The position numbers and the translations under genes were made by a program. Positions 28,135 through 51,165 of a stretch of 64,000 bases of DNA are shown here, one piece after another. This stretch comes from an uncultured Candidatus Saccharibacteria bacterium (GTDB lineage Bacteria; Patescibacteriota; Minisyncoccia; Ryanbacterales; GWA2-47-10b): contig CAYHJF010000002.1 of NCBI GenBank assembly GCA_964356915.1, positions 19,982 through 83,981 on the forward strand. The letters are read 5' to 3'. The first letter of the stretch is position 1. Each line of letters begins with the position of its first letter. The notes beneath the pieces were generated by a model. The model had not been told where the DNA came from, did no database searches, and was given only the letters and a program-made list of their open reading frames with translations.

Positions 28135-28136
28135 AG

Positions 28137-28772: not shown

Positions 28773-28778
28773 AATGGT

Positions 28779-30425: not shown

Positions 30426-30427
30426 AC

Positions 30428-31015: not shown

Positions 31016-31020
31016 ATACT

Positions 31021-31314: not shown

Positions 31315-31365
31315 ATCGTTGTGCCTTTTATTGGTGGATAATGTTCGACCTTTGTGTGAAGCGAT

Positions 31366-31812: not shown

Positions 31813-31821
31813 AATAATTTC

Positions 31822-31905
31822 GTTAATTAATTGGTTAATAAACGTCGACCAAAACCCTCAAGGGCTTCCCTCGATCAGGCGGCTTTGGGAAGCCTTGGCC
31901 GTCCG
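31822..31905 (-). terminator. Possible attenuator/terminator after capsid gene
   Basis: Minus-strand hairpins ggcttccc...gggaagcc and ccctcaaggg, followed by ttttgg. Partial termination after a highly expressed capsid gene is common in phages. Confidence 0.3.
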
Positions 31906-31920
31906 ATCGAGTCTTGAGAA

Positions 31921-33102
31921 TTAAGCGAATTCCACTATCGCGTGTCGCTCAGGCTGTTCGAATTGGAGTCCACATTCAGTCAGGTATTCGTCTACTCGTG
32001 CGTCTTCGCCATTGCCTTGTCGGTTCGTGAGGAGCTTCGTGTCTCGGCTTGCGAGATATCGATAAGTCAGCGTCTCGAGGTCAAGTCCTACTCCGCTCTT
32101 TCCGTAGAGATTTCCTATCAGGAGATCGTGCTTGATGAGATTGAGTGTGCCGTGAGGCGAGAAGTACTTGATGACCGTGAGGCCAAAAGTCTTTTCGTTC
32201 GACACTACCTGCAGCTTGTCCATCGCAAATTCGTTGATCTTGCTAATCACATACGGCGATGCAAAGAGGTACTTTTCGGAGTTTCCGTGGCTGAAGAGAA
32301 GTTCGAGGTATGTCGTGAATTCCGCTCGGGTCGATACGTTGCTCTTCTTCTGCGTGATCCTTGGGAAGAGTCCCTGAGTAAAGCGTTTCGGATGGGTCAG
32401 ACCGCTCGTCAGTTGCTCTTTCTTTCCGAAAAGGAACGCTCGCTCAATGTCTATCAAGTGCTCGGTAGCTTTCTTTTTTGTCTGGAAGTCAAAGTCACTT
32501 TCCTTCGTCCATCCCTTCGTGTTGCGTGCTGTCTCGGTGATACCGATCGGGGTTCGGAAGATTTGCGTGTAGTTCGATACCTGTGCCACAGTCGTCGCCT
32601 TGATCTCGCGTACATCCGCGCCTTCTTGGTTTGCATTGCCGATTATCCAGATGATGTCGTTCGTAAGCAGCAAACCTCCGCCAGTTCCCGCGTCGCCGAT
32701 CTTTCGGAGCACAGTGAGCGTGCTAGTACCCGGCGTTACTGCCGTCACAAGCATCACTTCACCACTCGGATTGTTCGTAACCTGTGTCGTTTTCACGCAC
32801 AGGAGAACATCTCCGACACTGAAGTAGCCGACATTCGTTACCACGAGTGCCGTTGCACCGCCCTGATCTGCCGACACGATGTCCTCGCGCGCGCCATACT
32901 TGTCTTCGAACCATTTGAATTCCGGATCAGTCGTCTCTTTCTTTTTCAGTGCCTTACCCTGCTTTGAAACAGGGTCTTTTCCTGCGTTCGTGAGAATCGC
33001 AAGCATTGGATATCGTTCGACATCAAGCAGTGAGATGACATCCGCGACATCGTACTTGCGTGCGACGCCGAGGTGTCCAGTTCCGCGTATTCCTTCTGTC
33101 AT
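31921..33102 (-). CDS. Putative major capsid protein (HK97-like)
   Basis: 393 aa. Sits just after the scaffold-like acidic protein and upstream of the head-completion ORFs. Composition is typical of capsid proteins. Confidence 0.55.
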   Translation of the reverse strand: MTEGIRGTGHLGVARKYDVADVISLLDVERYPMLAILTNAGKDPVSKQGKALKKKETTDPEFKWFEDKYGAREDIVSADQGGATALVVTNVGYFSVGDVLLCVKTTQVTNNPSGEVMLVTAVTPGTSTLTVLRKIGDAGTGGGLLLTNDIIWIIGNANQEGADVREIKATTVAQVSNYTQIFRTPIGITETARNTKGWTKESDFDFQTKKKATEHLIDIERAFLFGKKEQLTSGLTHPKRFTQGLFPRITQKKSNVSTRAEFTTYLELLFSHGNSEKYLFASPYVISKINEFAMDKLQVVSNEKTFGLTVIKYFSPHGTLNLIKHDLLIGNLYGKSGVGLDLETLTYRYLASRDTKLLTNRQGNGEDARVDEYLTECGLQFEQPERHAIVEFA

Positions 33103-33151
33103 AGAGTTTTTGTGCGGTTAGTTATTAATGCTCTGGAAGGTTCGACCCTGG

Positions 33152-34012
33152 CTATACGCCAAGACCTCCCAATGGGCTTTTTGACCCACCCGTTCCGAAG
33201 ACACTTTCGAGGCGTTTTGTTTCAGCCCCCTTGCCATCGTCAGGTGAAGCGGAGGAGCCACCTCCACGTTCAACAACGGCCTTAGCTTTCTTGAGCCTCG
33301 TTCTCTCTTTTTCGGTAGTAGTGGTTTCGCCCTTGGCAGTACCGGAGAAGGCGTCAACTTTGGCGCACGCCTCTTTGAGGGGCATGTGCACGCCTTTCTG
33401 TGCGGCATTGTCAATCAAGGCAAGGACGAGTTCGCGGTATTCCGCGTTCGTCTTCAGGAGAGGGTGATCCTTCTTGGCTTCCCTAATCTCCTGCGCGACC
33501 GACTGCTGGACCGCGGAGCGTTCCTGCACCGTCGAATCGACTTGAGACTGAATGTGCTTAATCACCCACTCTGCAAATTGCGCTGGACTCATCTTTGAGA
33601 GTTCCTCGTTGCTTGGAATCTCTATCTTGCCTACCTTGGTCTTTTTCTTATCCGTCTCTTTATCTTTTTTCTTGTCGCCACTTTCGCTCTTCCCTTTCTT
33701 TTTTTCGATGGCTTCGATCTCGCGTATTACATCCTCTCGGCTTTTTCCGTGCCACCGTTCCGGATTTTTAATTTTGGGCTTGTCCTTATCTTCTTCGTCC
33801 TCTTCCTCATCCTCCTCTTCGTTATCTTTCTTATCTTTGTCGTCGTCACCTTCCTCTTCTTCCTCGGCTTCGTCTTCGCCCTCTTCGCCTTGCTCGTCCT
33901 TTTCCTCTTCGTCTTTTTCTTCTTCATCGTCAGGCGACTCGTTTTCCATCTCATCATCCTTTTCATTGGGATCGCCGAGTGCGTTATTCAATTCTTGGGT
34001 TCGTTTGTCCAT
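33152..34012 (-). CDS. Putative scaffolding protein (highly acidic N-terminus, Lys-rich middle)
   Basis: Asp/Glu run DDEEEKDEEEKDEQGEEGEDEAEEEEEGDDDKDKKDNEEEDEEEDEEDKD, then a KK-rich helical region. Confidence 0.45.
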   Translation of the reverse strand: MDKRTQELNNALGDPNEKDDEMENESPDDEEEKDEEEKDEQGEEGEDEAEEEEEGDDDKDKKDNEEEDEEEDEEDKDKPKIKNPERWHGKSREDVIREIEAIEKKKGKSESGDKKKDKETDKKKTKVGKIEIPSNEELSKMSPAQFAEWVIKHIQSQVDSTVQERSAVQQSVAQEIREAKKDHPLLKTNAEYRELVLALIDNAAQKGVHMPLKEACAKVDAFSGTAKGETTTTEKERTRLKKAKAVVERGGGSSASPDDGKGAETKRLESVFGTGGSKSPLGGLGV

Positions 34013-34037
34013 GAATAGATTTATTAGATTGGTAAAT

Positions 34038-34319
34038 TTATGAGTCGCGCAGTGCCTTTGCCGCGTCTTCTTTTGCCTCCAGTGCGGTTGCTACCATCGC
34101 GAGTACGCTCTCATATGCGTTGATGTTGGCTCTCATCTGTAAATATTCCGAAGCGATTTTTTCTATCGTCATTCCCTCCACGTTCATCGTCCGGAGTTCT
34201 GCGTTCGTGATACGGAGTTCATCTCGCATCTTCGCTTCGAGCCATTGCCACCCCGAAGATTTCGTCATCTCCAGTACGTTCATTCCGACTTCCAGTTGTT
34301 TTTCGTACTCGTCTTTCAT
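34038..34319 (-). CDS. Small coiled-coil phage protein
   Basis: 93-aa ORF in the head module. Confidence 0.3.
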   Translation of the reverse strand: MKDEYEKQLEVGMNVLEMTKSSGWQWLEAKMRDELRITNAELRTMNVEGMTIEKIASEYLQMRANINAYESVLAMVATALEAKEDAAKALRDS

Positions 34320-34331
34320 AAAAATTAAAGG

Positions 34332-34646
34332 CTATTCCTCTTCCTCTGCGGAAGGTTCACCCTGCTCTCCACTGTCTTCAGGGAGATCCATTTCTGGACC
34401 GCCAACGCCAAGGCCACCGAGCTTGTCATTGGTTTCGTTCTGGAGTGCTGTCAGCGTTTCGATAATAGTTGAGATCACATCAGGGAACGGAGTGCCTTCT
34501 TCGTATGCCTTCTTCGCCGCATTCACGATTGCATCAACTTTCTCCCAATCCTTTTCCATCTCTGGTCCACCTTCTTCTTTCTTCAATCCAACAGCTTCCG
34601 ACTCCGCACCTTCTTCGATTTGCTCTTCTTCGTTTTCTTTTGCCAT
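34332..34646 (-). CDS. Small acidic phage protein
   Basis: 104-aa ORF in the head module. Confidence 0.3.
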   Translation of the reverse strand: MAKENEEEQIEEGAESEAVGLKKEEGGPEMEKDWEKVDAIVNAAKKAYEEGTPFPDVISTIIETLTALQNETNDKLGGLGVGGPEMDLPEDSGEQGEPSAEEEE

Positions 34647-34680
34647 ATATTTAATGGTTAATTGTTAATAATTTCGACCT

Positions 34681-34863
34681 TTATTTTTTGGAGAGCACGA
34701 GCGTTGCTGTATCACCCAGCTCGTACCCTTTCGCCTGATCTCTTGTGAGATGAAGCGTTTGCACCGATCCTCCGACGACCTGCAGCGATACGATGATGTA
34801 TTCGCCGCTTATCGTTTTGCTGAGGACGGTGCACTGTTGGGTGATGATGTCTGTTTTTGCCAT
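34681..34863 (-). CDS. Small phage protein
   Basis: 60-aa ORF between the portal and the acidic protein. Confidence 0.25.
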   Translation of the reverse strand: MAKTDIITQQCTVLSKTISGEYIIVSLQVVGGSVQTLHLTRDQAKGYELGDTATLVLSKK

Positions 34864-34870
34864 ATGCGTT

Positions 34871-36718
34871 TTACTTACCGCCGATAAATGGAAGGCTGTT
34901 TAATGCCCTACGGATAAACGATGGTCGACGTACCACCGCGCTCCCTTCAACATTCGGTTGCCCTGCATTCTCAGGGGTTGCTACAGGTTCGGGAGTCGCC
35001 TGTGGCTGTGGTTTTTTCTTTTCTTCGCCGAAGAACAACGTCTTATACGCTTCTTTGTCAGTCGCCTCGAGGATCATCTCTTCTATCGCTCTCTTTCGCG
35101 TTTTGTAGGCTTTCACTGCGTCGGGGTCGTTCGGATCAGGCTTATCGCCACCTACGAATCGGTCGTGAAGCATGAGGGATTCGTTCAGTCGTGTCTGCTT
35201 GTCGGGAGGAACAGCCGGTTCAATCTCGACCACCGCATCGACCTTCACTTCCTTGTCCTGCTGTTTGAATTCTTTGAATTCAACATCGTCGCCAACTATG
35301 CGGTAGAGTTTGTCTTCAGTCAGGAATTCTTGATTCAACTGCACAAGGTTATTTGCGAGGCGCGTGAGCGCGAAGGCAATATTTCCTGCAAAAGAACCGA
35401 GGCGCATATTGCTTTGGCCGATGAGCATTTCGACTTTGCCTAGTGGTTCTTGCGCCGACTTAGGCTGTCCCGAGGCATACTCGGAGATAGCTAGTGTTCT
35501 CTCGATTTCTTCGCGGAGCATTTTCTCTTCATTAATACCCATCAGGCTTATTTCAGGTGGCCGCTCGATTACGACGTCGTCCATCTTTCGCAGTTCCCAC
35601 TTTGCGCCCGGCCCGAAGACGATGCTGTCTTTCGTTATGCCCGAGTCCTTGCGGATTTTGATTACTGGATCGAGCATGAGAATGACATCGTCCATGCGCT
35701 GATTTCGGAGGTCGGCAATTTCGATAATGGTCGACTCCACCGGCTCGATATGACCGATCGACCAAAACTCCCAGGGCAGATCGTGATCGGGTAGGTCTAT
35801 GAAAATGCGACCGCTGTTCACGCTCTTGTATGGGTTATCGTCGTTTCGGATGAGTGTGTCTTGGTTCGCAATCGTGACGATCTTACACTCTTCAAAGTCC
35901 CAGCATTCCCATAGCTCTATTTGCTTTTCTTTCTCGCTCTTATCACTGCCGACTTTGATGGTCGCTCCTTCGGCCGAATCGCTGCCGACCGCGATCTGCC
36001 CCATCTTTTTCGTGTCGATTTCGTATCGCTCTTTCTTCCAATCATCGACGCTCTTTGATTCGACAAACTTCAGATTCTTGTAAATCTTGTCATCGCCTCG
36101 CGCTTCTTCTTCTTTTTCGAGCTTCGCTTTCGTCTTCGCTATTCGGCGTATGAGCCACGGACAGTCTTCGTGCAGATCGATTGTTTCGGGAGCAATAAGG
36201 ATTTCCCACAGGTCGAGAATGTCGAGTACAGGATCGTCGTAGTCTCCGGACTTCATCCAAGTCGTCATGCCAATGCCGTTGCCATAGATACTCGAAGACT
36301 TCACCCAGTCACGCAGCCGGACCGTGAGCTTAATGATGTCGAAGTCGTAGTTGACCAGATCGTCCCAGGATTGAAGCGAATTAGATTGGAGGTCTTTCTT
36401 TTCTCTCGGGAGGATGCGCGTCTTGCGCTTCGCCGTCGCCATTCGGGAGACCACCGTTTCGATGATCTCGAACGCGATCGGCGGCATCAGACGTGTCTCG
36501 TATGCGTAGTTTTGTCGCTCCTGATAAGCGCGATAGAGCTTGTACATACGGAGATGCTTCGCTCGGTACGGACGCATGAATTCTTCCGCACGAGTGAATC
36601 TTTTCTTCCATTTTTCAACGAGCTTTTTTTCTTCTTCAGACGGCGAATAGACCTCATCATTCGATGATGATTCAGTATCTTCCTGCGTTTGTTTTTCTGT
36701 ATCTTTTTCTTCTGCCAT
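34871..36718 (-). CDS. Putative portal protein
   Basis: 615 aa, first gene of the structural operon, with an acidic N-terminus. Confidence 0.5.
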   Translation of the reverse strand: MAEEKDTEKQTQEDTESSSNDEVYSPSEEEKKLVEKWKKRFTRAEEFMRPYRAKHLRMYKLYRAYQERQNYAYETRLMPPIAFEIIETVVSRMATAKRKTRILPREKKDLQSNSLQSWDDLVNYDFDIIKLTVRLRDWVKSSSIYGNGIGMTTWMKSGDYDDPVLDILDLWEILIAPETIDLHEDCPWLIRRIAKTKAKLEKEEEARGDDKIYKNLKFVESKSVDDWKKERYEIDTKKMGQIAVGSDSAEGATIKVGSDKSEKEKQIELWECWDFEECKIVTIANQDTLIRNDDNPYKSVNSGRIFIDLPDHDLPWEFWSIGHIEPVESTIIEIADLRNQRMDDVILMLDPVIKIRKDSGITKDSIVFGPGAKWELRKMDDVVIERPPEISLMGINEEKMLREEIERTLAISEYASGQPKSAQEPLGKVEMLIGQSNMRLGSFAGNIAFALTRLANNLVQLNQEFLTEDKLYRIVGDDVEFKEFKQQDKEVKVDAVVEIEPAVPPDKQTRLNESLMLHDRFVGGDKPDPNDPDAVKAYKTRKRAIEEMILEATDKEAYKTLFFGEEKKKPQPQATPEPVATPENAGQPNVEGSAVVRRPSFIRRALNSLPFIGGK

Positions 36719-36724
36719 AAACTG

Positions 36725-36748
36725 AAAAAACCGAGCTTAGAAGCTCGG
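36725..36748 (-). terminator. Intrinsic terminator upstream of portal gene (terminates DUF559/RM transcript)
   Basis: Minus-strand hairpin ccgagctt/aagctcgg followed by tttttt. Confidence 0.4.
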
Positions 36749-37018
36749 TTCCTCCAGTAATGGGTAGCACTGCGACACCCATCATTGGAGGAACAGAGCC
36801 TCCAATCGGTGTCGAATCGTGTTTGTCGGGCAAATAAAAAACGAGGCTCCGACTCCTAGCTCTCAAAGCAAAATGCCTTGAGAACAGAAGTCGTAGCCCC
36901 GTGTCGTTTAGTCTCCAGAGGAGACGCCGTCAGGCGACGTTTCTTTACCACATAATTGTAGCATTGAATACCCAGGGACCGTCAAGAGCCGATGTGGATA
37001 GTTTAGTTGCTTAGATTT

Positions 37019-37387
37019 CTACTCTAAATGCAGGTATATCTTTCGCTCTCTTATTTTCGATGCTTCAGCGAGGGCATCTGAAATCTCGGGCAGATGCAAA
37101 CGAATCATCTCATTCGGGATGTGCATTGTATCGAACCCATTTTTATGGGAATAATATCCCCTACTCAAGTCTGCCACGATCTGATCCGCATTCGTAAGGT
37201 GTTGGATGCCGTCAATCTCTACGTTGATTTTTGCTTTTGGAATCGCGAGATCGATATGTTTGTGGCCGTCATGTAGTTCGACCATGACACGGACACCTTT
37301 TCCTTCGAGCGCAGCCTTTAAATCCGCCGCCTCTTTTGTTGGTGTTCGAAATTTCTTTATGACGATTTTTTCTTCGGTTATTTGCAT
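37019..37387 (-). CDS. DUF559-family (Vsr-like) endonuclease domain protein
   Basis: INVEIDGIQH...ADLSRGYYSHKNGFDTMHIPNEMI matches the DUF559 VELDGxQH...D..R...G pattern. Confidence 0.55.
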   Translation of the reverse strand: MQITEEKIVIKKFRTPTKEAADLKAALEGKGVRVMVELHDGHKHIDLAIPKAKINVEIDGIQHLTNADQIVADLSRGYYSHKNGFDTMHIPNEMIRLHLPEISDALAEASKIRERKIYLHLE

Positions 37388-37393
37388 TGAATT

Positions 37394-37556
37394 TTATAGA
37401 CCCTCCTCAGCTACCTCGATTGCATCATCTTCGTCTAAGCCTTCGTCGATGAGTTCCTGCGCTCTCTCGGCCGTGTCCTTATCGAGATCGTGGCTTTTCA
37501 TGATCTCTTTCACATCCTCGTCGATCTCTTCAGGTTTTTCTACTTCATCGTCACTC
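37394..37556 (-). CDS. 54-aa hyper-acidic micro-ORF (not in ORF track)
   Basis: Manual translation: MSDDEVEKPEEIDEDVKEIMKSHDLDKDTAERAQELIDEGLDEDDAIEVAEEGL. 24 of 54 residues are Asp/Glu, net charge about -19. Confidence 0.3.
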
Positions 37557-37561
37557 ATTTT

Positions 37562-39454
37562 TTATTTCAATTGGTAGTAGAAGTACGTACTGTCAGGGAA
37601 TTTTATGTTAGGCACCCACAACGGACGGTCTTCCCATCCTTTGCTTGCTTCGCCCTTGAGTCGATACATTGTAATGACAAGGCGGTCAGGATGCTGCATG
37701 CCGAGAGCGCGGTCAGTCGGAGAAAGGAGCGTACCTGTTCCCCTGCTGATGCTACGGTCGGTGCGTACTACCAACAGACAATCGAATTTCGCATTGTTCT
37801 TGCGGAGAGTTTCTACGCAGTCAGGGAAAGAATGCTGGTTCCATAGATCGGTTTTCTCGACGCCGATCAAGCGCAATATTTTTTCCGCATCTTTCAGGGA
37901 TATGTCGCGTTCGCTGTCTTTCGATCCAAGTTCGGAATCGAGTTCTTTGAGGTTTGCGACAGTCGGCATCAATGGGAAATAGTTTACGCCTCCGGCGACG
38001 ACCATAAGGTCTTCCTTCAGCACAACGCTCATGCGTGTCGGTCTTGTTCCTGCAGGGCTGAGCAGGCTTACTCCCTGCGGTCCCTTGGTTCGGAGAGTTT
38101 CGAAGAGCGAGTTATTTGCGTCGTTCAATTCGCGGAAGAGCTTGATGAGTGGCTTCGGGCTGAATATCCTGCAGAGTCCCTGATCACGGTCATAGCCGAA
38201 TACGCGTGCATGCTGCCAGTACGTGTCTGCTTGTGGCGTCTTTGCGCTTCGGCAGTAGTAGACGACCTGCAGGCCCGGAAAAGTCACGCCTCGGCCGAGG
38301 GTGTTTCCGCCGATCACGATATTTAGTCCCTTGTCGTACACTGCGCCTTCCGGAGTCTTCGAGTTAAGCACCACGATGTTGACGCTCGGCATGCCGGAGC
38401 GAAGGAATTTCATCACTTCTTCGAAGCTCTTTATGTCTTCCTTTGTCTTTGAGAAATCCTCCCATGCATCGCGCAGGTCGAATTCAAGCGTCTGCGAGTT
38501 TGCAATAAGGTCGGTCTTCACGCCCTCGAGAAACTTCTCGACTTTAGTGCGGACTGTGGCGTGTTCGCTTATCTTTGCGCCTGGGTGTATGAGCATGCTG
38601 CATACTGGCTTCTCTTTCGTGAGAAAAAGGTCGGATGATGCAATAAGGAAATGGAGTACTGCTTTGCGGAGACCGATCGGCACATGCTCTGCTTTTAGAA
38701 GGTCGTCGCGCTCGTTGTCCGCAGTCTCGATAAGACATTTCGACTCTTCGCCATAGAAAAAATCTCCACCAAGATAGCCTTCGCCTGGAGGAAGATAAAA
38801 AGAAAATTCAGGCTTCCAGTTTGACTGCGACACTTGAAGCACAAGGGATTGAGGAGTTGCGGTGACGTGAAGATACATGCATGACGGAGCCTGCTCACTG
38901 ATCTTTTCCAAGAGCATGTTTATGGTGCTCTGGTCGTTTTGGTTTACTTTTGTGTTGAGACTCGATGCATCAGCTTCGTCGTCGAGCAGGAAGAGAGGTT
39001 CGTCTTTATAGATAGGATTGCTTGCGATGTTGTTCGCCCATGTCTTGAGGACACTCGAGTTCTTCTTGAGCACCAATATCGTAGGCATCGACAGGCCACG
39101 CGTAAGGAACGCTTCTTCGTCCATTTCGCCGAGCACATTAAACCCTGCCATAAATCCACCGAGGAATAATTTTGTGCGCTCAAGCGTCTGTTTGTGGAGG
39201 AGCACATTATCCGTGGTCACCATTATGAAAAACTTGAAGCCTTTATCGGCGGCTGTGGCTGCGATCGCAAGCATCTGTCCGGTCTTTCCGCTCTGTACAT
39301 GGCCGTAGAGCAGCCCGGAGATGTGGCTGTTGTAATCGAAGGCGTCGATATGCTTTTCAGCAAATTCATCCGCACTTTTTTTGAGCGCGTCGACAAGCCT
39401 CGGACCCTTGGCCTCGCCTACTCGTTTTAGATAATTGTCGAGATATTCGCTCAT
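37562..39454 (-). CDS. DEAD-Z1 ATPase/helicase-like motor subunit of restriction system (H.CglI / R2.NgoAVII-like)
   Basis: Walker A GHVQSGKTG and DEAD box LFLLDDEADASS. 630 aa, close to the ~630-aa H.CglI. Immediately downstream of the PLD nuclease and the C5-MTase. Confidence 0.7.
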   Translation of the reverse strand: MSEYLDNYLKRVGEAKGPRLVDALKKSADEFAEKHIDAFDYNSHISGLLYGHVQSGKTGQMLAIAATAADKGFKFFIMVTTDNVLLHKQTLERTKLFLGGFMAGFNVLGEMDEEAFLTRGLSMPTILVLKKNSSVLKTWANNIASNPIYKDEPLFLLDDEADASSLNTKVNQNDQSTINMLLEKISEQAPSCMYLHVTATPQSLVLQVSQSNWKPEFSFYLPPGEGYLGGDFFYGEESKCLIETADNERDDLLKAEHVPIGLRKAVLHFLIASSDLFLTKEKPVCSMLIHPGAKISEHATVRTKVEKFLEGVKTDLIANSQTLEFDLRDAWEDFSKTKEDIKSFEEVMKFLRSGMPSVNIVVLNSKTPEGAVYDKGLNIVIGGNTLGRGVTFPGLQVVYYCRSAKTPQADTYWQHARVFGYDRDQGLCRIFSPKPLIKLFRELNDANNSLFETLRTKGPQGVSLLSPAGTRPTRMSVVLKEDLMVVAGGVNYFPLMPTVANLKELDSELGSKDSERDISLKDAEKILRLIGVEKTDLWNQHSFPDCVETLRKNNAKFDCLLVVRTDRSISRGTGTLLSPTDRALGMQHPDRLVITMYRLKGEASKGWEDRPLWVPNIKFPDSTYFYYQLK

Positions 39455-39458
39455 ATGT

Positions 39459-40511
39459 TTATACAGAGAAGTCGAGAAGCCACACCTTCGGATCGCTCGT
39501 TTCTTTCAGCGATATGGTTTTGCGACCGTACTTCTGCAGCACTTCGTCCGTTACTGGCTGTCCGACCTTTAGGCAGTTCGCTCGTTCAAGCCTTCCCTTT
39601 ATCCATCGGCCGAGAGTCTTTAAGTCTCCGCCCGAGCGAAAGTTCTTGCCATAGTCTCCCTGAATTTTGCATTCAAATTTCCATCCGTCATCGGTTATAA
39701 CGCTGATCTGTGTATCGCGTGGCGGATAGCCGTCTGCTTCAGTTATTTCTCTCGGTACAATAAGTTCTACTTCGTACCAGTGGCGAGGGCGTATCGCTCC
39801 TGTTGCCGTCGCGAGGCGACCTTTGCCGAAGTATGCATTGAGATTGCTCTTCGCTTCTGTCTTTAGAGGAATGTCGAACACTCGCTCTACTCCTGTTGCT
39901 TCGATAGCCTCATATACATCTTGGTCTGCTTTTTCGACATCGACGCGGTCTTGAAGCAAGTCCGTCATTTCTACGAAATGCTCGGGCTTCGGCATGTCGA
40001 GAATGTCGCGCGACGCCTTTTTGACTAAGTCTTCGTGCAGCGAGTCCAGTTCTGTGAGGACGCTTCCTTCAGTAAAGAGCGCGTCTACCTCGTACTGCCT
40101 GCTGTCGAGAATATTGCCGAGGTTCGATGATCCGAGCATTGCGGAAACTGGTGCCGGTACGCCGTTCTTGCCGAAGACATAAGTCTTGCCGTGGTATTTG
40201 AATGCAGTGCATACGCGCACGCTACCGAGACCGTTTTCACGCAAAAAAGTCGCAAGCTCGATGGCTGCGTCGTATTGAGCGCGAGTGAACCCTTCCCTCC
40301 CGTGCATGCCTATCACTAGGCTGCATGTTTTGGTCTGCTTCTCTTCGAAGTAAAAAAGTAGTATCGACTTGAGTTCAAGGAGAGAATCCTCCGTGATATA
40401 CCCGGTCGCTATCTTTATGATGTCGGAGCCAACGACTCCATTTTCAAATGCTTCGCTGAAGGAAGAGCTATCGTACTCGCAGGGTTTGGTGTTCGAATAA
40501 AGAAGTTGCAT
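39459..40511 (-). CDS. PLD-family restriction endonuclease subunit with B3-like C-terminal domain (R.CglI / R1.NgoAVII-like)
   Basis: HKD-type motif YHGKTYVFGKNG...LGSSNLG, with HxK and GSxN elements. 350 aa. Encoded between the C5-MTase and the DEAD-Z1 gene. Confidence 0.65.
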   Translation of the reverse strand: MQLLYSNTKPCEYDSSSFSEAFENGVVGSDIIKIATGYITEDSLLELKSILLFYFEEKQTKTCSLVIGMHGREGFTRAQYDAAIELATFLRENGLGSVRVCTAFKYHGKTYVFGKNGVPAPVSAMLGSSNLGNILDSRQYEVDALFTEGSVLTELDSLHEDLVKKASRDILDMPKPEHFVEMTDLLQDRVDVEKADQDVYEAIEATGVERVFDIPLKTEAKSNLNAYFGKGRLATATGAIRPRHWYEVELIVPREITEADGYPPRDTQISVITDDGWKFECKIQGDYGKNFRSGGDLKTLGRWIKGRLERANCLKVGQPVTDEVLQKYGRKTISLKETSDPKVWLLDFSV

Positions 40512-40529
40512 GCGAGTTTATCGTACAAA

Positions 40530-41585
40530 TCATAGTTCGTCTAAAAATCTCTTAATCGCCTCTGCGATCGGCTTGATGCCTGCAGGGGGAACCGAGTTCC
40601 CTATCTGCCTGCGTACCTCGGCGATTGAGCCGACAAACTGGAAGTCGTCGGGGTAGCCAAAGAGCCGTGCGCGTTCTCGATTTGTGAGAGGGCGATTTTC
40701 TTCATAATGGTAGCCCCAAGTGCCACCACCACCGCCTGCTATAATTGTAGTTGAAGGCTTGTCAGGATGCAATCGTCGATAGACGTGTGAAATCATACCC
40801 TTGACATAGTGCGGTGAGTTCTTTGGAATGTCCGTAAAGTTTCCGCCTGGAGGAATTATTCTCAATTTTGCGACCGTGCTCGGCGCGATGTTCTGGTGCT
40901 CGTTGTTGAATGGCACTTTCTTCACACCTTTGAGTGCTTCTTTTGCTGTGACGTATGTCTTTGGATTATAGGTAGGTTCTGGCAGTTTGAATTCTTTGTT
41001 GAGATCGTTGCGGACTCCGACGATAAGCACACGCTGACGAAGTTGAGGTGCTCCGTAGTCTGCAAAGTTTATTGGGTATACATCCACTTTGTATCCGGCC
41101 TTTCCGAAGTCGTCCACGATTTGCGTCACTGCCTTACCTTTGTTTGCGCTTAGCAAGCCTCGCACGTTTTCTGCGACGAACATCTTCGGCTTCTTCGCCA
41201 AGACGACGCGGACGAAGTGTCGATATAAATTTCCGCGCTCGGTCTTGAGACCCATGCGCTTCCATATCATTGAAAAATCTTGGCACGGGAATCCGCCCGT
41301 GATGATATCGACTTCTGGGATTGTTTTGTCATCGATCTCGACGATGCTTCCCTCCGCGACAATGCCTTTGAAGTTTTTTCTAAAAGTTTCGCATGCCCAA
41401 TGATTTACATCGTTCGCCCACACCACATCGAAGCCTGCATGTTCGAACCCGAGATCCATTCCGCCGGACCCTGAAAATAGTGACGCTGCGCGATATGGCC
41501 GCCCCCCCACCTTAGATTTGATTGCGATGGAAATCTGTGGCTTAACAGAAGGATTATTTGGCTTTTGAAGTGCTGTTGTACTCAT
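40530..41585 (-). CDS. DNA (cytosine-5)-methyltransferase
   Basis: Motif I FSGSGGMDLGF, motif IV GGFPCQDFS, motif VI ENVRGL, motif X region GNSVPP. Confidence 0.9.
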   Translation of the reverse strand: MSTTALQKPNNPSVKPQISIAIKSKVGGRPYRAASLFSGSGGMDLGFEHAGFDVVWANDVNHWACETFRKNFKGIVAEGSIVEIDDKTIPEVDIITGGFPCQDFSMIWKRMGLKTERGNLYRHFVRVVLAKKPKMFVAENVRGLLSANKGKAVTQIVDDFGKAGYKVDVYPINFADYGAPQLRQRVLIVGVRNDLNKEFKLPEPTYNPKTYVTAKEALKGVKKVPFNNEHQNIAPSTVAKLRIIPPGGNFTDIPKNSPHYVKGMISHVYRRLHPDKPSTTIIAGGGGGTWGYHYEENRPLTNRERARLFGYPDDFQFVGSIAEVRRQIGNSVPPAGIKPIAEAIKRFLDEL

Positions 41586-41645
41586 GTTCTAGATTATACC
41601 CTAAGTGCATGAAAAATGCCGCAACTTTTTGCATGAAAAAAACAC
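41586..41645 (-). promoter_or_regulatory. Candidate leaderless promoter plus direct-repeat operator of the RM operon
   Basis: Minus-strand reading gives gggTATAATctagaacATG, a consensus -10 ending 7 nt before the MTase start codon. Two direct tgcatgaaaaa repeats, 22 bp apart, overlap the -35 region. Confidence 0.35.
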
Positions 41646-41763
41646 ACAAATTCCCAAACGCGGCTTAACTGGGGCCGCAAAATGGGAATAAGTTATCCAC
41701 AGTTGTACAATTTTACTACCGCTTTTTTGCTCAAAAGGTTTGTATTAAAATCGTCGCAAGCGA

Positions 41764-42168
41764 TTATTCTGTGGAAGAAATTTGTGTACCCTTTTGCTTA
41801 GCACGACTTATTAAGTATCCTCCAACGAATGCGACAACACCGAGTACGTCGCCGATTGCGAATGGTCCGAAGGCCGGTGCTACCGAAGGATCAAAAAACG
41901 ATCCACTGAGAAATGTGAATCGTGCGATGACGCTGGCAATTACGACAAGTCCCAAACAGACAAGTCCTGCCTGAAATGGTCTTAAACTCATGGTATTAAT
42001 AATATCACTTTCGGGCGGCCGCATAAATCCCGCCGCCAGGAGCTCGTGCCTTTCGGCCCGAATGCACACCTTTCGATATGCAACCATCCAAGGAACCCTG
42101 ACGACGGGGTTTATACCTTGGATGGATTTACTGCCATGCTCATCAGCAAGCTGAGTGAGTTTAGGCAA
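41764..42168 (-). CDS. Membrane protein, hypothetical
   Basis: C-terminal half has two TM helices (LVCLGLVVIASVIARF, FAIGDVLGVVAFVGGYLI). Start uncertain. Confidence 0.35.
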   Translation of the reverse strand: MPKLTQLADEHGSKSIQGINPVVRVPWMVAYRKVCIRAERHELLAAGFMRPPESDIINTMSLRPFQAGLVCLGLVVIASVIARFTFLSGSFFDPSVAPAFGPFAIGDVLGVVAFVGGYLISRAKQKGTQISSTE

Positions 42169-42215
42169 GATTGTAAGGATATTTTACTATATTTAAAATA
42201 ATTCGGATAGTTTAG

Positions 42216-42265
<50 letters not shown>

Positions 42266-42328
42266 CGACCGCCTGCGGCGGAATTCAAGGGATCAAAAGA
42301 CCCAAGAATTCAAGACCTCAAGGATCGA

Positions 42329-43216
42329 TTACTGCGGGAGGAAGGCCGACGCGGAACCGCAGCTGCCGCTGGCAGAGTCGAACCAGTAGGCGCCGAACCC
42401 CACCCGGTCGCCGCCGAAGTCGAAGAGCGGCGCGAGCGAGAAGTCGCCATCGGCCTCCGGAGCGTACTCGTCACCGGCGCAGTCGACGTAGAGATCGTCG
42501 TAGTTCATCAGCCGCTCGGGATGCGTGAGCAACATGATGCCGACGGCGAACGCGCCGAGACCGAACTCGTTGACCTGCATGACCTCGCGTGCCCGGCGAA
42601 CCGAGCGACCGCGATGCCGCAGACCGAACTGAGCCGCCACGACGAGGATGTCGTGATCCTTCTGCTCGTCGCCGAGCGTCTGGAACACCTTCTCCGTCTT
42701 GGCCGTCTGCTTCAAGTAGTCCGGACCGAGGTTGCCCTCGCGCCAGTTCTTGAACTTGCCCTTGCGCGTCTCGCTGATCTTCGCGAGCACCTTCTCCACG
42801 GCTTCGCCGTAGGTCGGGGCGATCGTCTGCCACTTCGGGATGGCGAACCATCCTTCGGCGTTGGCAGGGACCGGCCGTTCCGCGAGCTTCTCGTCGGCGA
42901 AACCGACGCCCGGGAACAGTTGCCGCAGGATGTTGGTCTGCTCCGTGATGCCCTTCGGCTTGTAGCCGGAGAGATACCCGTAGCTGGACTCCATCTCCTC
43001 GTCCTTGAACTTGTCGGAGACCGACAGATCCTTCAGCGAGGTGATGGCGGCCACGCGGATGGCCTCGGCGAAATCGTCGCCGTGTTCGATGACGCGTTGT
43101 GCGCCGGGGTTGTCGAGGCCGAGCTCAGCGAGAACCTTCTCGATGGCGTCGGAGCCGAACCGGTTGATCTGCTTGACCTGACCGGACGTTGCTGCTGTCT
43201 GAGTAATCGCGTTCAT
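42329..43216 (-). CDS. DGR target (variable) protein, VR in the C-terminal 44 codons
   Basis: 295-aa ORF at ~65% GC, against ~45-48% for the surroundings. The last 132 nt are an A-mutagenized copy of the template repeat (TR). Confidence 0.85.
   Translation of the reverse strand: MNAITQTAATSGQVKQINRFGSDAIEKVLAELGLDNPGAQRVIEHGDDFAEAIRVAAITSLKDLSVSDKFKDEEMESSYGYLSGYKPKGITEQTNILRQLFPGVGFADEKLAERPVPANAEGWFAIPKWQTIAPTYGEAVEKVLAKISETRKGKFKNWREGNLGPDYLKQTAKTEKVFQTLGDEQKDHDILVVAAQFGLRHRGRSVRRAREVMQVNEFGLGAFAVGIMLLTHPERLMNYDDLYVDCAGDEYAPEADGDFSLAPLFDFGGDRVGFGAYWFDSASGSCGSASAFLPQ
42332..42462 (-). repeat. DGR variable repeat (VR)
   Basis: Reverse complement matches TR 43673-43804 at 114 of 132 nt. All 18 mismatches sit where TR has adenine. 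The 26-nt 3' block cggttccgcgtcggccttcctcccg is identical in both copies (IMH-like). Confidence 0.85.
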
Positions 43217-43399
43217 TGCGTTATCTCCTTTTGGATTTCCTGAAACGCTCAGGTGACGGCCTTCCTCTTAGTGAGGCGAGCGCGATAGGCACAAGCAATT
43301 ATGCCGATTGCGCTCACCTCAGTTATTCAAAGAACACTCTTCTATAGTATAACAAAGTCATACGGGCTTGTCAAGTAGTGGGTTTTGTGCCCTATTCCC

Positions 43400-43408
43400 T
43401 GCTATAAT
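43400..43408 (+). promoter_or_regulatory. Extended -10 promoter (TGcTATAAT) oriented toward TR
   Basis: ctgcTATAATtattcg on the plus strand, ~270 nt upstream of TR. No good -35. Confidence 0.3.
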
Positions 43409-43672
43409 TATTCGTGAGTATAGGCTAATGCATGGCCGTCCAAGGATTGCCGTCGCCGAACTCTATCGTTTCAACGATAGCAACCAGAGTCGCGGAGATT
43501 ACGGTTTTCGCGAGCGTGTTGTGTTGAGGGGATACTGCTTGTCTCTGCCTAAGATGGGTTTCGCTCGCTATGCGGATACCGTCGAATTAAATTCAGGAGT
43601 GGGAGCGTATAGTCCTGTTTCCAACAGGAAGTAAGGCTCGAAGTCCGGTGACATGGGTGGGTGGAGACAATT

Positions 43673-43804
43673 CTCCGGAGGCCGATGGCGACTTCTCGAA
43701 CGCGCCGATCTTCAACTTCGACGACGACCGGGTGAAGTTCAACGCCAACTGGTTCGACAATGCCAACGACAACTACGGTTCCGCGTCGGCCTTCCTCCCG
43801 AAGT
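43673..43804 (+). repeat. DGR template repeat (TR)
   Basis: Contains 26 adenines. 17 internal adenines plus 1 boundary adenine are substituted in VR, and no non-A position differs. Seven AAC/AAT codons are in frame with VR. Confidence 0.85.
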
Positions 43805-43816
43805 CTCCCTAGACGC

Positions 43817-43850
43817 AGAAAAGGCATCCTTCTTTCGGATGCCTTTTCTC
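43817..43850. terminator. Bidirectional terminator between TR and avd
   Basis: Stem aaaaggcatcc / ggatgcctttt, loop ttctttc. Sits immediately after the avd stop on the minus strand and after TR on the plus strand. Confidence 0.5.
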
Positions 43851-44207
43851 TTACCCGGTCTTCGTTGAGCGAATCCAACCTCCGAGCATGCGTCCGATTT
43901 CGTCGATGACACCTTCGAGCGCAACATACTTCTTCGCATCGATTGCCTTCACGTCTTTCATCAGACGAACGAACACACGAAGCATGTTGAGCTTTAGGCT
44001 GCATCTCTCAAGCGTGGGAACTTTTACGGATTTCTGTTCGCTGCTTGCCTGCAGAATCGCCTCGAGCACGTCGAGTATCAGCTGCTCACACCTTTCGAAG
44101 ATTGTGAACCTGTCCTGCTTGGGAACGAGTTTCCGATATTCGTGGAAGAGTTTGTAGAGATCGTATGCCTTTTTGAAGATCGGGATATCGAAGTCATTCA
44201 TAACCAT
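43851..44207 (-). CDS. avd: Avd-like accessory variability determinant (four-helix-bundle protein)
   Basis: ~119 aa from the internal Met. Basic, helical. KKAYDLYKLFHEYRKLVPKQDRFTIFERCEQLILDVLEAILQA is typical of the Avd / 23S-IVS four-helix-bundle family. Confidence 0.7.
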   Translation of the reverse strand: MVMNDFDIPIFKKAYDLYKLFHEYRKLVPKQDRFTIFERCEQLILDVLEAILQASSEQKSVKVPTLERCSLKLNMLRVFVRLMKDVKAIDAKKYVALEGVIDEIGRMLGGWIRSTKTG

Positions 44208-45255
44208 GAAGATATATAAGGATTTGTTTAATCGGATAGTCTCACTTGGAAACCTAGTCACAGCCTGGGAGGAATTTCGCAGCGACAAAGGCAAGAAGGC
44301 TGATGTGCTGGAATTCGAGTATTCGCTAGAGCCGAATCTCTTTGCGCTCCGGCGTGAGCTGGGCTCCAAACGCTACTCTCACGGTTCGTATGAGGGTTTT
44401 TATATCCGCGATCCGAAGGTCAGGCATATTCACAAGGCAGCGGTTCGCGACCGTGTCCTGCACCATGCAGTGTTTAGAATTCTGAACCCGATCTTCGAGG
44501 AAACATTCATCGCTAATTCGTTTTCTTGCCGAGTCAATAAAGGTACACACAAGGGAGTGCTTGCCGCCGAGAATATGATTCGAGCGGAGAGCAGGAACTA
44601 CACTATTCCCTGCTTCGCCCTCAAGTGCGATGTGCGTAAGTTCTTCGATTCGATTGATCACGAAATCTTGCTAGCGATTCTCAAGCGACGGATCGCCGAC
44701 CCCGATACGATGTGGTTGTTGCAAGAGATTGTCAGGAGCTTTGAAGTCGGAGGCACGAGCCTTTTTAATCGGCACGGTCTGCCTATCGGCAATCTCACTT
44801 CCCAACTCTTCGCCAACGTCTACATGAACGAATTCGACCAGTTCGTTAAGCACGAGATGAAGGTTAAGAATTACGCACGTTATACCGACGACTTTATAGT
44901 TGTGTCGGCCGACAAGAAGTATTTAGAGGGGTTGCTCGATCCGTTTCAGGAATTCCTCGGGGAACGTCTGAAGCTCTCGCTTCATCCGAAGAAAATCTCT
45001 ATTGGCAATGTGGCGAGGGGAGTCGACTTTCTAGGGTATGTCGCTCTTCCCCACTACAAGGTGCTTCGGACCAAGACAAAACACCGAATATTCCGCAAGC
45101 TCAGGGAACGAGTCATGCAGTACCGGCGTGGTGATATAAGCGAGCACTCTCTCTCACAATCCCTCCATTCCTACTTGGGTGCGCTTTCTCATGCTGACGC
45201 CCACCAACTGACTGAAGATCTAAAGAACCGCTACTGGTTTTGGCTTCACGAGTAA
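44173..45255 (+). CDS. DGR reverse transcriptase
   Basis: GFYIRDPKVRHIHKAAVRDRVLHHAVF...SFSCRVNKGTHKGV. DGR-specific motif 4 GLPIGNLTSQLFANVYMNEF (IGxxxSQ). Catalytic YARYTDDFIVV (YxDD). The start may be the second Met at 44206. Confidence 0.95.
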   Translation: MKIGISKSFITMKIYKDLFNRIVSLGNLVTAWEEFRSDKGKKADVLEFEYSLEPNLFALRRELGSKRYSHGSYEGFYIRDPKVRHIHKAAVRDRVLHHAVFRILNPIFEETFIANSFSCRVNKGTHKGVLAAENMIRAESRNYTIPCFALKCDVRKFFDSIDHEILLAILKRRIADPDTMWLLQEIVRSFEVGGTSLFNRHGLPIGNLTSQLFANVYMNEFDQFVKHEMKVKNYARYTDDFIVVSADKKYLEGLLDPFQEFLGERLKLSLHPKKISIGNVARGVDFLGYVALPHYKVLRTKTKHRIFRKLRERVMQYRRGDISEHSLSQSLHSYLGALSHADAHQLTEDLKNRYWFWLHE

Positions 45256-45406
45256 ACGCAAAAATCCTCGCAGTACCATCTTTCGGCGCATACGCGCGGA
45301 AGAATCCTGTGCGAGGATGGCTTGGATGGTTTTGCGACCGTGCCCGTAGCCGGGGTTAGGTCTTATTCAGTTGTCTAAGTATCTTAGCAAATAAAACAAT
45401 ATTTGA

Positions 45407-45934
45407 TTACTTGTGATCTTTGTCATGGCCGTCGTTACTTAGTCTTTCTATTTCTTCCTGAAGCATTTTTACAATGCACTTGCTCTTATACGTCAAAAAC
45501 TCGATGTGTTTCTCATCAAATGTCGACAGTAGCCGGTAATATTTGTCTGACAGCGGTTTGTAATAAAGCAACACGAGTGCGATTTTTTTAGGCACTGATT
45601 TCACAATGACTTTTCGTTTGTCTTTAGTGTCGCGCACATAAGTCACGCAGCCTTTTTTCTCAAGACGAGTGATCAGCCCCGTGATTGCGCCGGTAGTAAG
45701 ACCGGTAATCTTTGCCAGTTCGCCCGGGGTCGTTTGACCTTTTTCTGCGAGATAGCCAAGGCAGGACATTTCGGTTTGGGTCATCCCCGCTCGTTTCGCT
45801 ACCAGCTCCTTAAATACTCCATCCATTCGGTACTGCTGTCCTCGGACGCGTTTGTATTCTTCATAGAGCCTATCCAGTCGCTTGTTTTTCCTGACTTTCC
45901 CGAGTTTGAATTTTTTCTTGGATTCGGCCTTCAT
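45407..45934 (-). CDS. MarR-family transcriptional regulator
   Basis: Winged-helix core LGYLAEKGQTTPGELAKITGLTTGAITGLITRLEKKGCVTYVRDTKDKRKV. Confidence 0.7.
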   Translation of the reverse strand: MKAESKKKFKLGKVRKNKRLDRLYEEYKRVRGQQYRMDGVFKELVAKRAGMTQTEMSCLGYLAEKGQTTPGELAKITGLTTGAITGLITRLEKKGCVTYVRDTKDKRKVIVKSVPKKIALVLLYYKPLSDKYYRLLSTFDEKHIEFLTYKSKCIVKMLQEEIERLSNDGHDKDHK

Positions 45935-46257
45935 TTCTTGATTTTATCTTATTTTGCGGTGCTTTTCCAGCTTGAGAAAATCTTTACTTTTTCTTTATGT
46001 TTTCTTTAACTTTGGAATGAGTGGACAACTCGATTTGTAATGATTCCCCCACCGAAGCTAACATCTCAACGGTCGCGCCGACGTGCCAATGGATTCGCCT
46101 GATGCATGGCGAAGTGCTTGGCGTTCGATTGATCAAGCGAGGGGCCGTCCGGAAGGGCGGTTTTTCGTTTGCCATAAATAACAAAAGCCCCTGGTTGGTC
46201 GGGGGCTTTTGTGCTCTAAGTTACCTCTATCTCAATCGCCTGGTTATTAATCTTTCT

Positions 46258-46824
46258 CTAGTAGTAGGCACCCTTGAAGGCATCCCACACTACGCTGTAC
46301 CAGCCCACGTTTTCGGTGGTGTCGTCCTGCAGCTCAACTCGAACGATTTCAGTTGAGTCGCCTGCATCGTCATACACCTGAACGAACTGGTTGTAGTACG
46401 CGTATTGGTCGAGACCAATGTTGCAGTACCATTGAGTGTCCTCATACGCGGCGTAAGGCCACGTGTAATGCCACGTCTGCGAGCAGTACGTTGCATGATG
46501 GGTTGTTCCTATCGTCGGGATGAACGGGAATTGATCCGAGTAATTCTGTGGGAAGTACTCGCTGTAGTAGTCATGCGCCGAGTAGAACAGCCATCTGAGC
46601 CAGTTACTTGGAGAGTATTGCTGGTTGTACGACCACTTGCAGGCTCCGCGAGAACCGCAGCTCGAGACGGTCGTGAAGCTTCCACTTTGGGAGTAGAAGC
46701 TGCCGTTCTCTTCGAGCGTGTAGTTCGTCTGAGCATGTGCAGGTGTGCCGAACGCAAACACCGCAATTGCGAATGCAGCAGCCATCACGAATGAGGCGAA
46801 GACGTTTTGTTTAGCTATTGTCAT
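46258..46824 (-). CDS. Secreted Tyr/Trp-rich protein, hypothetical
   Basis: Signal peptide MTIAKQNVFASFVMAAAFAIAVFAFGTPAHA. The mature part is rich in Y/W/S. Confidence 0.45.
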   Translation of the reverse strand: MTIAKQNVFASFVMAAAFAIAVFAFGTPAHAQTNYTLEENGSFYSQSGSFTTVSSCGSRGACKWSYNQQYSPSNWLRWLFYSAHDYYSEYFPQNYSDQFPFIPTIGTTHHATYCSQTWHYTWPYAAYEDTQWYCNIGLDQYAYYNQFVQVYDDAGDSTEIVRVELQDDTTENVGWYSVVWDAFKGAYY

Positions 46825-46827
46825 AGG

Positions 46828-47517
46828 TTATATGCCAACTGTGTTGGAGTAGCTAAGCAAAGTCCCACCCACTGTGAGGCCGATCTGGACGAAGCGCATC
46901 TGTTCGCTGCTGGAAGACGAATCTTCCCAGCGGAAAAAGAATGCCTTTCCGTCTTTTGTACCAATCTGAGGCTTCCCCTCCAGAATGGTTGCATCGGCTC
47001 CCTGAGACTTGGCGAATTCAACGGCGACCGGAAGGAGAGTATCCTTCGTGTATCGCTCAGTGAAATCGTATGAGTCTGACGGGTTGGCGTCGCTTTCCTT
47101 TTCGCGCGATGCCGGACCGATCTGCACGACTTTATTGGTGTCACCATCAATCCAATACGAGTAGCCACGAGCATCGGTGAAGACGAGTACAGCTTTCTTA
47201 TGGAGGTCTACTCCCCTGACTTCATCCCTTTCGGCGATGTAGGGGTTGATAGAAACCTTCTTGTATTCTGTGCTGACGTCACTCTTTGCAAGTGAACGAG
47301 CGGCAGCAGCTGCGGCATTTTGTGCCGAGCTAATGCGCTCTTGCGACACGTTCCGATCAATAAGACCCAGGCCGATCGATGCGTTTGCTGGTGCTTCTTC
47401 CGCCTTTGTCACCTGAGTGGTGACAATGTTGGCGAAGCCGAGCACAGTACCGACGGCAAGGCCTACCATGATCGCTCCTATTGCGAATGTTCTCGCATCT
47501 AAGGTTTTGATGTTCAT
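46828..47517 (-). CDS. Secreted/membrane-anchored protein, hypothetical
   Basis: N-terminal signal/anchor FAIGAIMVGLAVGTVLGFA. 229 aa. Confidence 0.45.
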   Translation of the reverse strand: MNIKTLDARTFAIGAIMVGLAVGTVLGFANIVTTQVTKAEEAPANASIGLGLIDRNVSQERISSAQNAAAAAARSLAKSDVSTEYKKVSINPYIAERDEVRGVDLHKKAVLVFTDARGYSYWIDGDTNKVVQIGPASREKESDANPSDSYDFTERYTKDTLLPVAVEFAKSQGADATILEGKPQIGTKDGKAFFFRWEDSSSSSEQMRFVQIGLTVGGTLLSYSNTVGI

Positions 47518-51159: not shown

Positions 51160-51165
51160 ACTTGT

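Follow-up and report, generated by a model that had tools for sequence, protein, structure and literature searches.

The stretch of DNA considered here (hereafter the window) comprises 64,000 nucleotides of contig CAYHJF010000002.1 (assembly GCA_964356915.1), which originates from the 0.1 µm fraction of the Hainich groundwater well H41 and belongs to a metagenome-assembled genome of a host from the Patescibacteria, also known as Candidate Phyla Radiation (CPR). It contains, with high probability, a temperate SU10-like phage that is integrated in the genome of this host and whose exchangeable cargo includes a complete ATP-dependent restriction-modification system of the CglI/NgoAVII type. The system is encoded by three genes, M, R and H, which specify a C5-cytosine DNA methyltransferase, a PLD-family nuclease carrying a B3-like DNA-binding domain and a translocase subunit of the DEAD-Z1 type, respectively. 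Gene content, gene order, tight spacing, the homology of each protein, the prophage setting and the exact cargo breakpoints are all directly observed for M-R-H. The locus adds a well-supported example to a known family and leaves the knowledge of this family unchanged; what it brings is a temperate phage that carries a whole ATP-dependent restriction system in the ultra-small and mostly CRISPR-less Patescibacteria.

The operon consists of five tightly packed minus-strand genes extending from 41585 to 37019, i.e. M, R, H, an open reading frame (ORF) of 54 amino acids (aa) encoding an acidic protein, and a gene encoding a DUF559-like protein. The successive gaps between them are 18, 4, 3 and 6 nt. 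Of 80 related loci from genomes, about 74 keep the co-directional three-gene order M-R-H, by which the family is defined. A previous sequence-only reading of this DNA had proposed this architecture from a C5-cytosine methyltransferase with the motifs FSGSGGMD, PCQ and ENV, a 350-aa PLD nuclease (HxK...GSxN) with a likely B3-like C-terminal domain and a 630-aa DEAD-Z1 subunit resembling H.CglI. The ORFs, their motifs and their homology to characterised proteins confirm the proposal for all three genes. Indeed, every motif that had been quoted is present at a defined position, and the two profile matches on which the assignment had been made to depend, i.e. a Z1 domain in the 630-aa protein and a PLD domain in the 350-aa protein, were both obtained.

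In profile searches, M matches PF00145 (E 1.4e-81) and TIGR00675 (E 2.6e-73). It displays the motifs FSGSGGMD (residues 37-44), PCQ (100-102), ENV (139-141) and QIGNSVPP (327-334), and it is 60% identical to M.NgoAVII across 321 aa, variable region included.

The nuclease R matches PF09565 (NgoFVII-type PLD domain, E 8.9e-24) and PF20731 (NgoFVII C-terminal B3-like domain, E 4.5e-33). It aligns over its entire length with the sequence of the R.NgoAVII crystal structure (4RCT, E 1.5e-72), identity with this counterpart reaching 41% overall and 52% in the B3 domain. The motifs YHGKTYVF (106-113) and GSSNLG (127-132) are present, with catalytic residues H107 and K109. The residues named for the NgoAVII structure are H104 and K106 for catalysis, K212 and K275 as clamp lysines, R285 as the reader of the central G, and positions 241/243 (PMC4267654). 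All of them have counterparts in R: the catalytic pair is aligned with H107/K109, and the other residues are conserved as K217/K282, R292 and E247/E249.

The motor subunit H matches the Z1 profile PF10593 (E 1.5e-34) and, from end to end, the PADLOC profile PDLC03202 'Type II helicase domain protein' (E 6.5e-184). It is 38% identical to N.NgoAVII across 626 residues, i.e. its full length (E 1e-144), and its last 155 residues (472-626) match the C-terminal domain of H.CglI (6F1S, E 4.8e-19). The signatures of H.CglI are a Gln in Walker A, a DDEAD box, a QxxR motif VI and a C-terminal Asn, Arg, Trp and Pro (PMC5861437). H carries the Gln variant of Walker A (GHVQSGKTG, 51-59), DDEAD (158-162) and QHAR as motif VI (414-417), all three features being invariant in an alignment of ten homologues reaching down to 44% identity; the equivalents of the C-terminal N493, R562, W609 and P622 (PMC5861437) are conserved as well.

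For comparison of the M-R-H signature, the NgoAVII locus of Neisseria gonorrhoeae (FA1090; PDB 4RCT, 4RD5, 4RDM) was read from the chromosome NZ_CP119142.1. Gene order is the same, and M, R and H are 374, 345 and 629 aa long in NgoAVII versus 351, 350 and 630 aa here. The two loci differ by the Patescibacteria host phylum and the prophage carriage found here, by the tip of the B3 N-arm, which has diverged here, by two extra downstream genes here, and by a GCGTT pentanucleotide repeat that lies upstream of M in the Neisseria locus and is absent here. About 20 tandem copies of this repeat are found directly upstream of ngoAVIIM (positions 2636-2740 of the compared locus L145), which suggests phase variation. 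The sequence NZ_CP119142.1 itself (2.17 Mb) is listed as a 'plasmid' in PLSDB and is a mislabelled N. gonorrhoeae chromosome.

The prototype CglI (Corynebacterium glutamicum ATCC 13032; genes cglIM, cglIR and cglIIR) was compared through the structure 6F1S and the literature, C. glutamicum not being among the best 80 loci of the genome scan. It shares the three-gene architecture and a prophage location, CGP3 (PMC4267653), but the phage is unrelated, that of the window having SU10-like head genes and a CPR host. BfiI, a stand-alone type IIS enzyme, combines a PLD nuclease and a B3-like reader in the same way as R (PMC4267654). However, it works without an ATPase partner, whereas here the DEAD-Z1 motor gene directly follows R.

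Systems of this type are widely distributed. At E<=1e-5, 2400 proteins were found, and 387 loci, confirmed by tblastn, are present in GTDB species-representative genomes belonging to many phyla. Furthermore, M, R and H occur together in 36 of the 40 IMG/VR loci retrieved with the H profile. In view of these numbers, the architecture cannot be called rare in sequence space, as the sequence-only reading had done.

The prophage and its cargo slot

The operon is located in a prophage that carries genes encoding an integrase, a tail fibre, an amidase, an SU10-type major capsid protein and portal, a large terminase (TerL) and two methyltransferases other than M. The prophage (GC content 0.50, versus 0.43 in the flanks) is bordered on both sides by host genes, including those of a tRNA synthetase and CTP synthase. 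Carriage in a prophage, which had been called notable from the sequence alone, is supported by these phage genes and host flanks; it is not exceptional, since the prototype CglI itself resides in a prophage. Searches of the operon against INPHARED phages gave no match with megablast and, with tblastn, only unannotated gut 'Bacteriophage sp.' fragments.

The cargo segment (about 8.5 kb) includes a diversity-generating retroelement (DGR), a gene for a small membrane protein, M-R-H, the 54-aa ORF and the DUF559-like gene. Its borders were obtained by blastn comparison with L011, the closest viral contig (85% identity in the portal, 89% in the capsid): homology ends at 45474 and resumes at 37001. 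In the same slot, L011 harbours a different cassette, which encodes a C5 methyltransferase, an SNF2 helicase and proteins of unassigned family. Among the related phages, L016 and L018 have the terminase gene directly abutting the portal gene, in L015 the terminase-portal gap is occupied by an Eco57I/MmeI-like enzyme, and L066 carries M-R-H followed by a true Vsr gene immediately upstream of the portal gene. The gap between terminase and portal genes is thus, in this phage family, a slot for the exchange of defence cassettes, a finding that helps to understand how phages compete with one another and how genes move within CPR communities of groundwater.

DNA homology between L066 and the window (75% identity) extends from 41701 to the exact stop codon of H. 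These limits, together with the varying nature of the downstream gene, imply that the conserved mobile unit consists of the promoter and M-R-H. L066 corresponds to QZIJ01000065.1, deposited as 'Anaerolineaceae bacterium SURF_68'; this contig carries a CPR-type SU10-like phage whose M-R-H-Vsr is 75-85% identical to the window. The assignment to Anaerolineaceae may have arisen from faulty binning; alternatively, the phage or its cassette may move between phyla.

The alternative slot cassette of the sister phages L011 (3450-9640) and L146 (1-5995) comprises five to six genes. They encode a 428-aa C5 methyltransferase, proteins of 273 and 374 aa without assigned function, a 565-aa SNF2-family helicase and a further protein of 406-423 aa, likewise unassigned. 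This cassette may be another ATP-dependent restriction-like system.

A DnaA-box-like motif is found at the cargo borders, as TGTGGATAA upstream of the first cassette gene and as its reverse complement, TATCCACA, just past the last cargo gene; these places coincide with the points where homology between related phages breaks off. In the window, TATCCACA sits exactly at the 3' cargo breakpoint; in L011, L066 and L146, it lies 2-80 nt from the last cargo gene. The GTGGAnA core of the motif at the 5' border of the module, CTGTGGATAACTT, is invariant in an alignment of 8 CPR loci despite diverged flanks. Over the whole window, the count of the DnaA-box-like 7-mer is at chance level (10 versus roughly 8 by our own estimate), so that only the positions of the motif are notable.

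Homologues that are 73-95% identical are frequent in CPR genomes, where they are located in integrated elements, some of them in split comM-like genes, beside serine recombinases. In L004-L008, close CPR M-R-H cassettes lie at the edge of elements that interrupt a Mg-chelatase/ComM-like gene; L007 and L008 also have a serine recombinase. These insertions suggest that comM is used repeatedly for integration in CPR.

Table 1. Coordinates of the features of the operon and its surroundings; positions are those of the window unless a compared locus (L number) is named
Feature	Position	Strand	Remarks
Prophage, approximate limits	18000..55500		SU10-like head genes; integrated in Patescibacteria chromosome
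Variable cargo segment	37002..45473		Between MarR-like gene and portal gene, in terminase-portal gap
Conserved CTGTGGATAACTT motif, DnaA-box-like	41690..41702	-	5' border of M-R-H module
Upstream hairpin	41640..41690	-	Arms GCGGC and GCCGC, then U-rich tract; -18.2 kcal/mol, z -3.6
Predicted M promoter	41583..41625	-	TTGCGGC at -35 position, TATAAT at 41598-41593, ATG 41585
M	41585-40530	-	351 aa, C5-cytosine DNA methyltransferase
R	40511-39459	-	350 aa, PLD-family nuclease with C-terminal B3-like DNA-binding domain
H	39454-37562	-	630 aa, DEAD-Z1 SF2 translocase subunit with CglI-type C-terminal domain
Acidic ORF	37558-37394	-	54 aa, called in source contig
DUF559-like	37387-37019	-	122 aa, small nuclease with Vsr-like PD-(D/E)xK fold
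Operon-end hairpin and U-run	36902-36838	-	Strong, intrinsic-terminator-like; -43.5 kcal/mol, z -8.7
Acidic-protein family members	Window 37394-37558 (-); L019 4862-5017; L022 4972-5127; L146 6001-6165; L147 6001-6150; L149 958-1125		
DnaA-box-like motif sites	Window 41702-41690, 37000-36993, 47917-47909, 42257-42226, 17847-17841; L011 9717; L066 3755, 8312; L146 6963		

The two genes downstream of H

The sequence-only reading had rightly placed the DUF559-like gene in the operon but had overlooked the 54-aa ORF that separates it from H. This ORF encodes a highly acidic protein, for which 33 homologues were found; it recurs as a tail gene of differing restriction cassettes in CPR mobile elements or islands and in phages. 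Members of this family (49-57 aa) share the pattern ...LD.D.AER..E..DEGLDEDEA.E.AEE and are encoded by the last or near-last gene of otherwise unrelated CPR cassettes, which are of the CglI type, of type I, of a type combining a C5 methyltransferase and an SNF2 helicase, or of the PDDEXK_1 type. It can be guessed that they act as DNA mimics or regulators.

The 122-aa protein passes the PF04480 (DUF559) threshold marginally (E 2e-4; 21.5 bits versus a gathering cutoff of 20.6). It belongs to a CPR-restricted family (65-96% identity), several members of which are annotated as PF04480. Its AlphaFold2 model (pLDDT 75.5) has 3r3p, 3hrl and PvuRts1I as top Foldseek matches; the probability is 1.00 for 3hrl (NGO0050) and 3r3p, yet the E values are about 1e-2, i.e. 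a moderate support. Its fold relatives, namely the catalytic domain of I-Bth0305I, the DUF559 protein NGO0050, PvuRts1I and AbaSI, are all nucleases with a Vsr-like fold. The gene following H varies among the 80 loci: it encodes Vsr in about 32 of them and Mrr in about 10, and many have nothing at this place. The pair formed by the 54-aa ORF and the DUF559-like gene follows H in the lineage studied here only.

The DUF559-like gene could be seen as the functional Vsr of the system, nicking T:G mismatches that result from deamination of 5-methylcytosine at GCSGC. Such a role would agree with the frequency of true Vsr genes adjoining related M-R-H loci, with the sister phage L066, in which Vsr holds the exact position of the 54-aa ORF and the DUF559-like gene, with the Vsr-like PD-(D/E)xK nuclease fold and with the name 'very-short-patch-repair endonuclease' given by JGI to members of the family. 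However, the candidate Vsr orthologue had to be rejected: the protein has no match to PF03852, BLASTP does not align it with the true Vsr of L004, and E. coli Vsr (1cw0) comes only 13th in the Foldseek ranking (E 2.6). Moreover, none of the 80 other M-R-H loci contains the DUF559-like gene, and the three homologues examined adjoin type I or type IIG adenine-methylating systems, at the end of the system, with no C5 methyltransferase within 6 kb. This role is therefore rather unlikely. Of the 'DUF559 Vsr-like endonuclease' of the sequence-only reading, the Vsr-like fold is retained, orthology to Vsr is not, and the expected pairing with a C5 methyltransferase is not borne out for this family. 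We infer that the two genes form an accessory tail rather than components of the CglI/NgoAVII family, and that they occupy the place held by Vsr or Mrr in sister cassettes.

Recognition sequence, mechanism and control of the operon

M.CglI and M.NgoAVII, which are 62% identical to each other, both methylate GCSGC (PMC4267653), and M is predicted to share this specificity. In systems of this family the methyltransferase, which produces m5C, acts on its own. The nuclease of CglI/NgoAVII reads the asymmetric sequence GCCGC and cuts 6-7 nt 3' of it; R and H assemble into R2H2, in which there is one nuclease active site, ATP-driven translocation proceeds mostly downstream, and cleavage needs both NTP hydrolysis and communication between complexes along the DNA (PMC4267653, PMC4267654, PMC5737866, PMC5861437). 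Since all the catalytic residues are intact, this mechanism is the best reading for the locus, and R is predicted, by its resemblance to its NgoAVII counterpart, to read GCCGC.

According to this scheme, M would be transcribed first, from its own and apparently leaderless promoter, and would methylate a cytosine in GCSGC. R would dimerise through its PLD domain to create one nuclease active site, its B3-like domains reading unmethylated GCCGC. Two H subunits would join this dimer in an R2H2 complex, whose DEAD-Z1 motor would hydrolyse ATP and move along DNA, mostly downstream; encounter with a second site-bound complex would activate cutting a few nt 3' of the site. The lysogen would in this way restrict incoming unmethylated phage and other DNA, and the system may stabilise the prophage. 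The progeny phages would exit with GCSGC-methylated DNA, which would shield them from this same system; related CPR hosts commonly carry it.

The 5-mer usage of the phage is consistent with such a specificity. Among the 512 strand-collapsed 5-mers of the phage backbone, GCCGC/GCGGC falls furthest below its expectation under a third-order Markov model (23 observed, 52 expected), and GCCGC ranks second of 512 for avoidance in five related phages pooled (68 versus 122). The host flank shows no such avoidance (28 versus 23.8). This avoidance fits a long exposure of the phage lineage to GCCGC-specific restriction.

The region upstream of M is conserved across 8 CPR loci, in which TATAAT, the ATG and GCGGC are invariant or nearly so. 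A GCSGC site (41622-41618) overlaps the -35 position of the predicted M promoter, and the TATAAT is separated from the ATG by 7 nt, which implies a leaderless M mRNA. The arrangement GCSGC-N14-20-TAnAAT immediately precedes M in 7 of 10 close loci (0.01 expected) and in 6 of 64 distant ones (0.04 expected), the M proteins of these six being 60-70% identical to that of the window. The conserved GCSGC at the -35 region suggests a methylation-dependent feedback on the operon promoter, of the kind known for CfrBI. CfrBI likewise has its own recognition site inside its promoter region (bioRxiv 10.64898/2025.12.04.692298). However, its divergent M and R genes share one promoter region, whereas the window has a single co-directional operon. 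NgoAVII also has a TTGCGGC upstream, but the pentanucleotide repeat separates it from M, so that this locus neither supports nor refutes the idea of a promoter site.

The hairpin located upstream of the promoter contains two further GCSGC sites, at 41674 and 41660. Its palindrome is kept in most CPR loci, with paired changes, as judged by eye, apparently occurring in the outer stem, and it probably serves as an insulating terminator ahead of the M promoter. At the other end, the terminator hairpin of the operon belongs to the phage backbone, since homology with L011 has already resumed there. The M promoter was identified by alignment and the operon terminator by folding; a generic promoter/terminator scan missed the latter.

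Several observations weigh against parts of this interpretation. The GCSGC/GCCGC specificity is deduced from identities of 41-60%, and the tip of the B3 N-arm of R, with 38% identity, has diverged from that of NgoAVII. The avoidance of the 5-mer could instead reflect other GC-rich restriction targets. The generic sigma-70 scan left the predicted M promoter unflagged, which is explained by the 20-nt spacing between TTGCGG and TATAAT, and two of the three GCSGC sites of the promoter region may be incidental, since GC-rich hairpin stems often hold GCGGC/GCCGC. Lastly, no att direct repeat was found across the prophage ends, the best exact match being 13 nt long and AT-rich, and no tRNA gene is present; the absence of identified att sites is the reason why the prophage limits are approximate.

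The system could belong to the same family but read a different sequence, such as GCWGC or another 5-mer, its methyltransferase being matched to it. The family does include BceSIV, which reads GCWGC (PMC4267653), the authors of the NgoAVII structure considered base contacts of the B3 domain hard to predict from sequence (PMC4267654), and the diverged N-arm tip would be in keeping with such a change. However, the identity of M to M.NgoAVII extends across the variable region and equals that of the specificity-sharing pair M.CglI/M.NgoAVII, and R keeps the arginine equivalent to R285, both clamp lysines and the 241/243 pair. Moreover, the 5-mer most avoided by the phage backbone is GCCGC, not GCWGC, and it is GCSGC that is conserved in the predicted promoter. 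Another specificity is therefore clearly improbable. A reading in which the phage benefits from the methyltransferase alone, as a means of self-protection from restriction by the host, R and H being inactive passengers or silenced in the lysogen, is very unlikely: orphan methyltransferases are indeed common in phages, this prophage has two more, and Paceibacteria prophages that bear C5 methylase genes are on record (PMC12455944), but R and H are full length with every catalytic motif, spacing is tight and operon-like, many CPR homologues 73-95% identical to R and H retain M-R-H together, and the three genes are conserved as a unit with L066 from the promoter onwards.

The promoter-site and cassette-border observations provide leads on the regulation and movement of such systems. 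Taken jointly, three propositions can be put forward tentatively, as a possibility rather more doubtful than not: (1) CglI-type operons specific for GCSGC would be controlled by methylation of their own recognition site, whose place over the -35 of a leaderless M promoter is conserved between CPR and distant phyla; (2) the cassette would be a discrete mobile unit, bounded by the DnaA-box-like motif (TGTGGATAA ... TATCCACA) and exchanged for other restriction cassettes at one slot upstream of the portal gene in a family of CPR phages; and (3) the 54-aa protein, with or without the DUF559-like nuclease, would be a previously unrecognised accessory or regulatory tail common to unrelated CPR cassettes.

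Neighbouring features of the prophage

The two additional methyltransferase genes of the prophage, 51166-52500 (-) and 52434-53648 (-), lie near the terminase gene. One encodes a ParB-domain N6/N4 enzyme and the other a second C5 enzyme, which shares about 38% identity with M. An orphan anti-restriction role is likely for both.

The DGR adjacent to the cassette was recognised by profile matches to RVT_1 (E 6.2e-24) and bAvd (E 2.8e-18). Its template repeat (TR, 43673-43804, +) and variable repeat (VR, 42462-42331, -) are 132 nt long and display 18 differences, all 18 located at TR adenines. The presence of a DGR beside the cassette, already noticed from the sequence alone, is therefore substantiated by a reverse transcriptase, an Avd protein and a TR/VR pair with adenine-only differences. 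The layout of this DGR (42331-45255) is unusual, with TR and VR in opposite orientations and with avd (about 44190-43851, -) running divergently from the gene of the reverse transcriptase (44173-45255, +). The gene caller used for the source contig picked a wrong-strand ORF of 240 aa over the 295-aa DGR target gene, after which both halves of the DnaA-box-like motif build a terminator hairpin.

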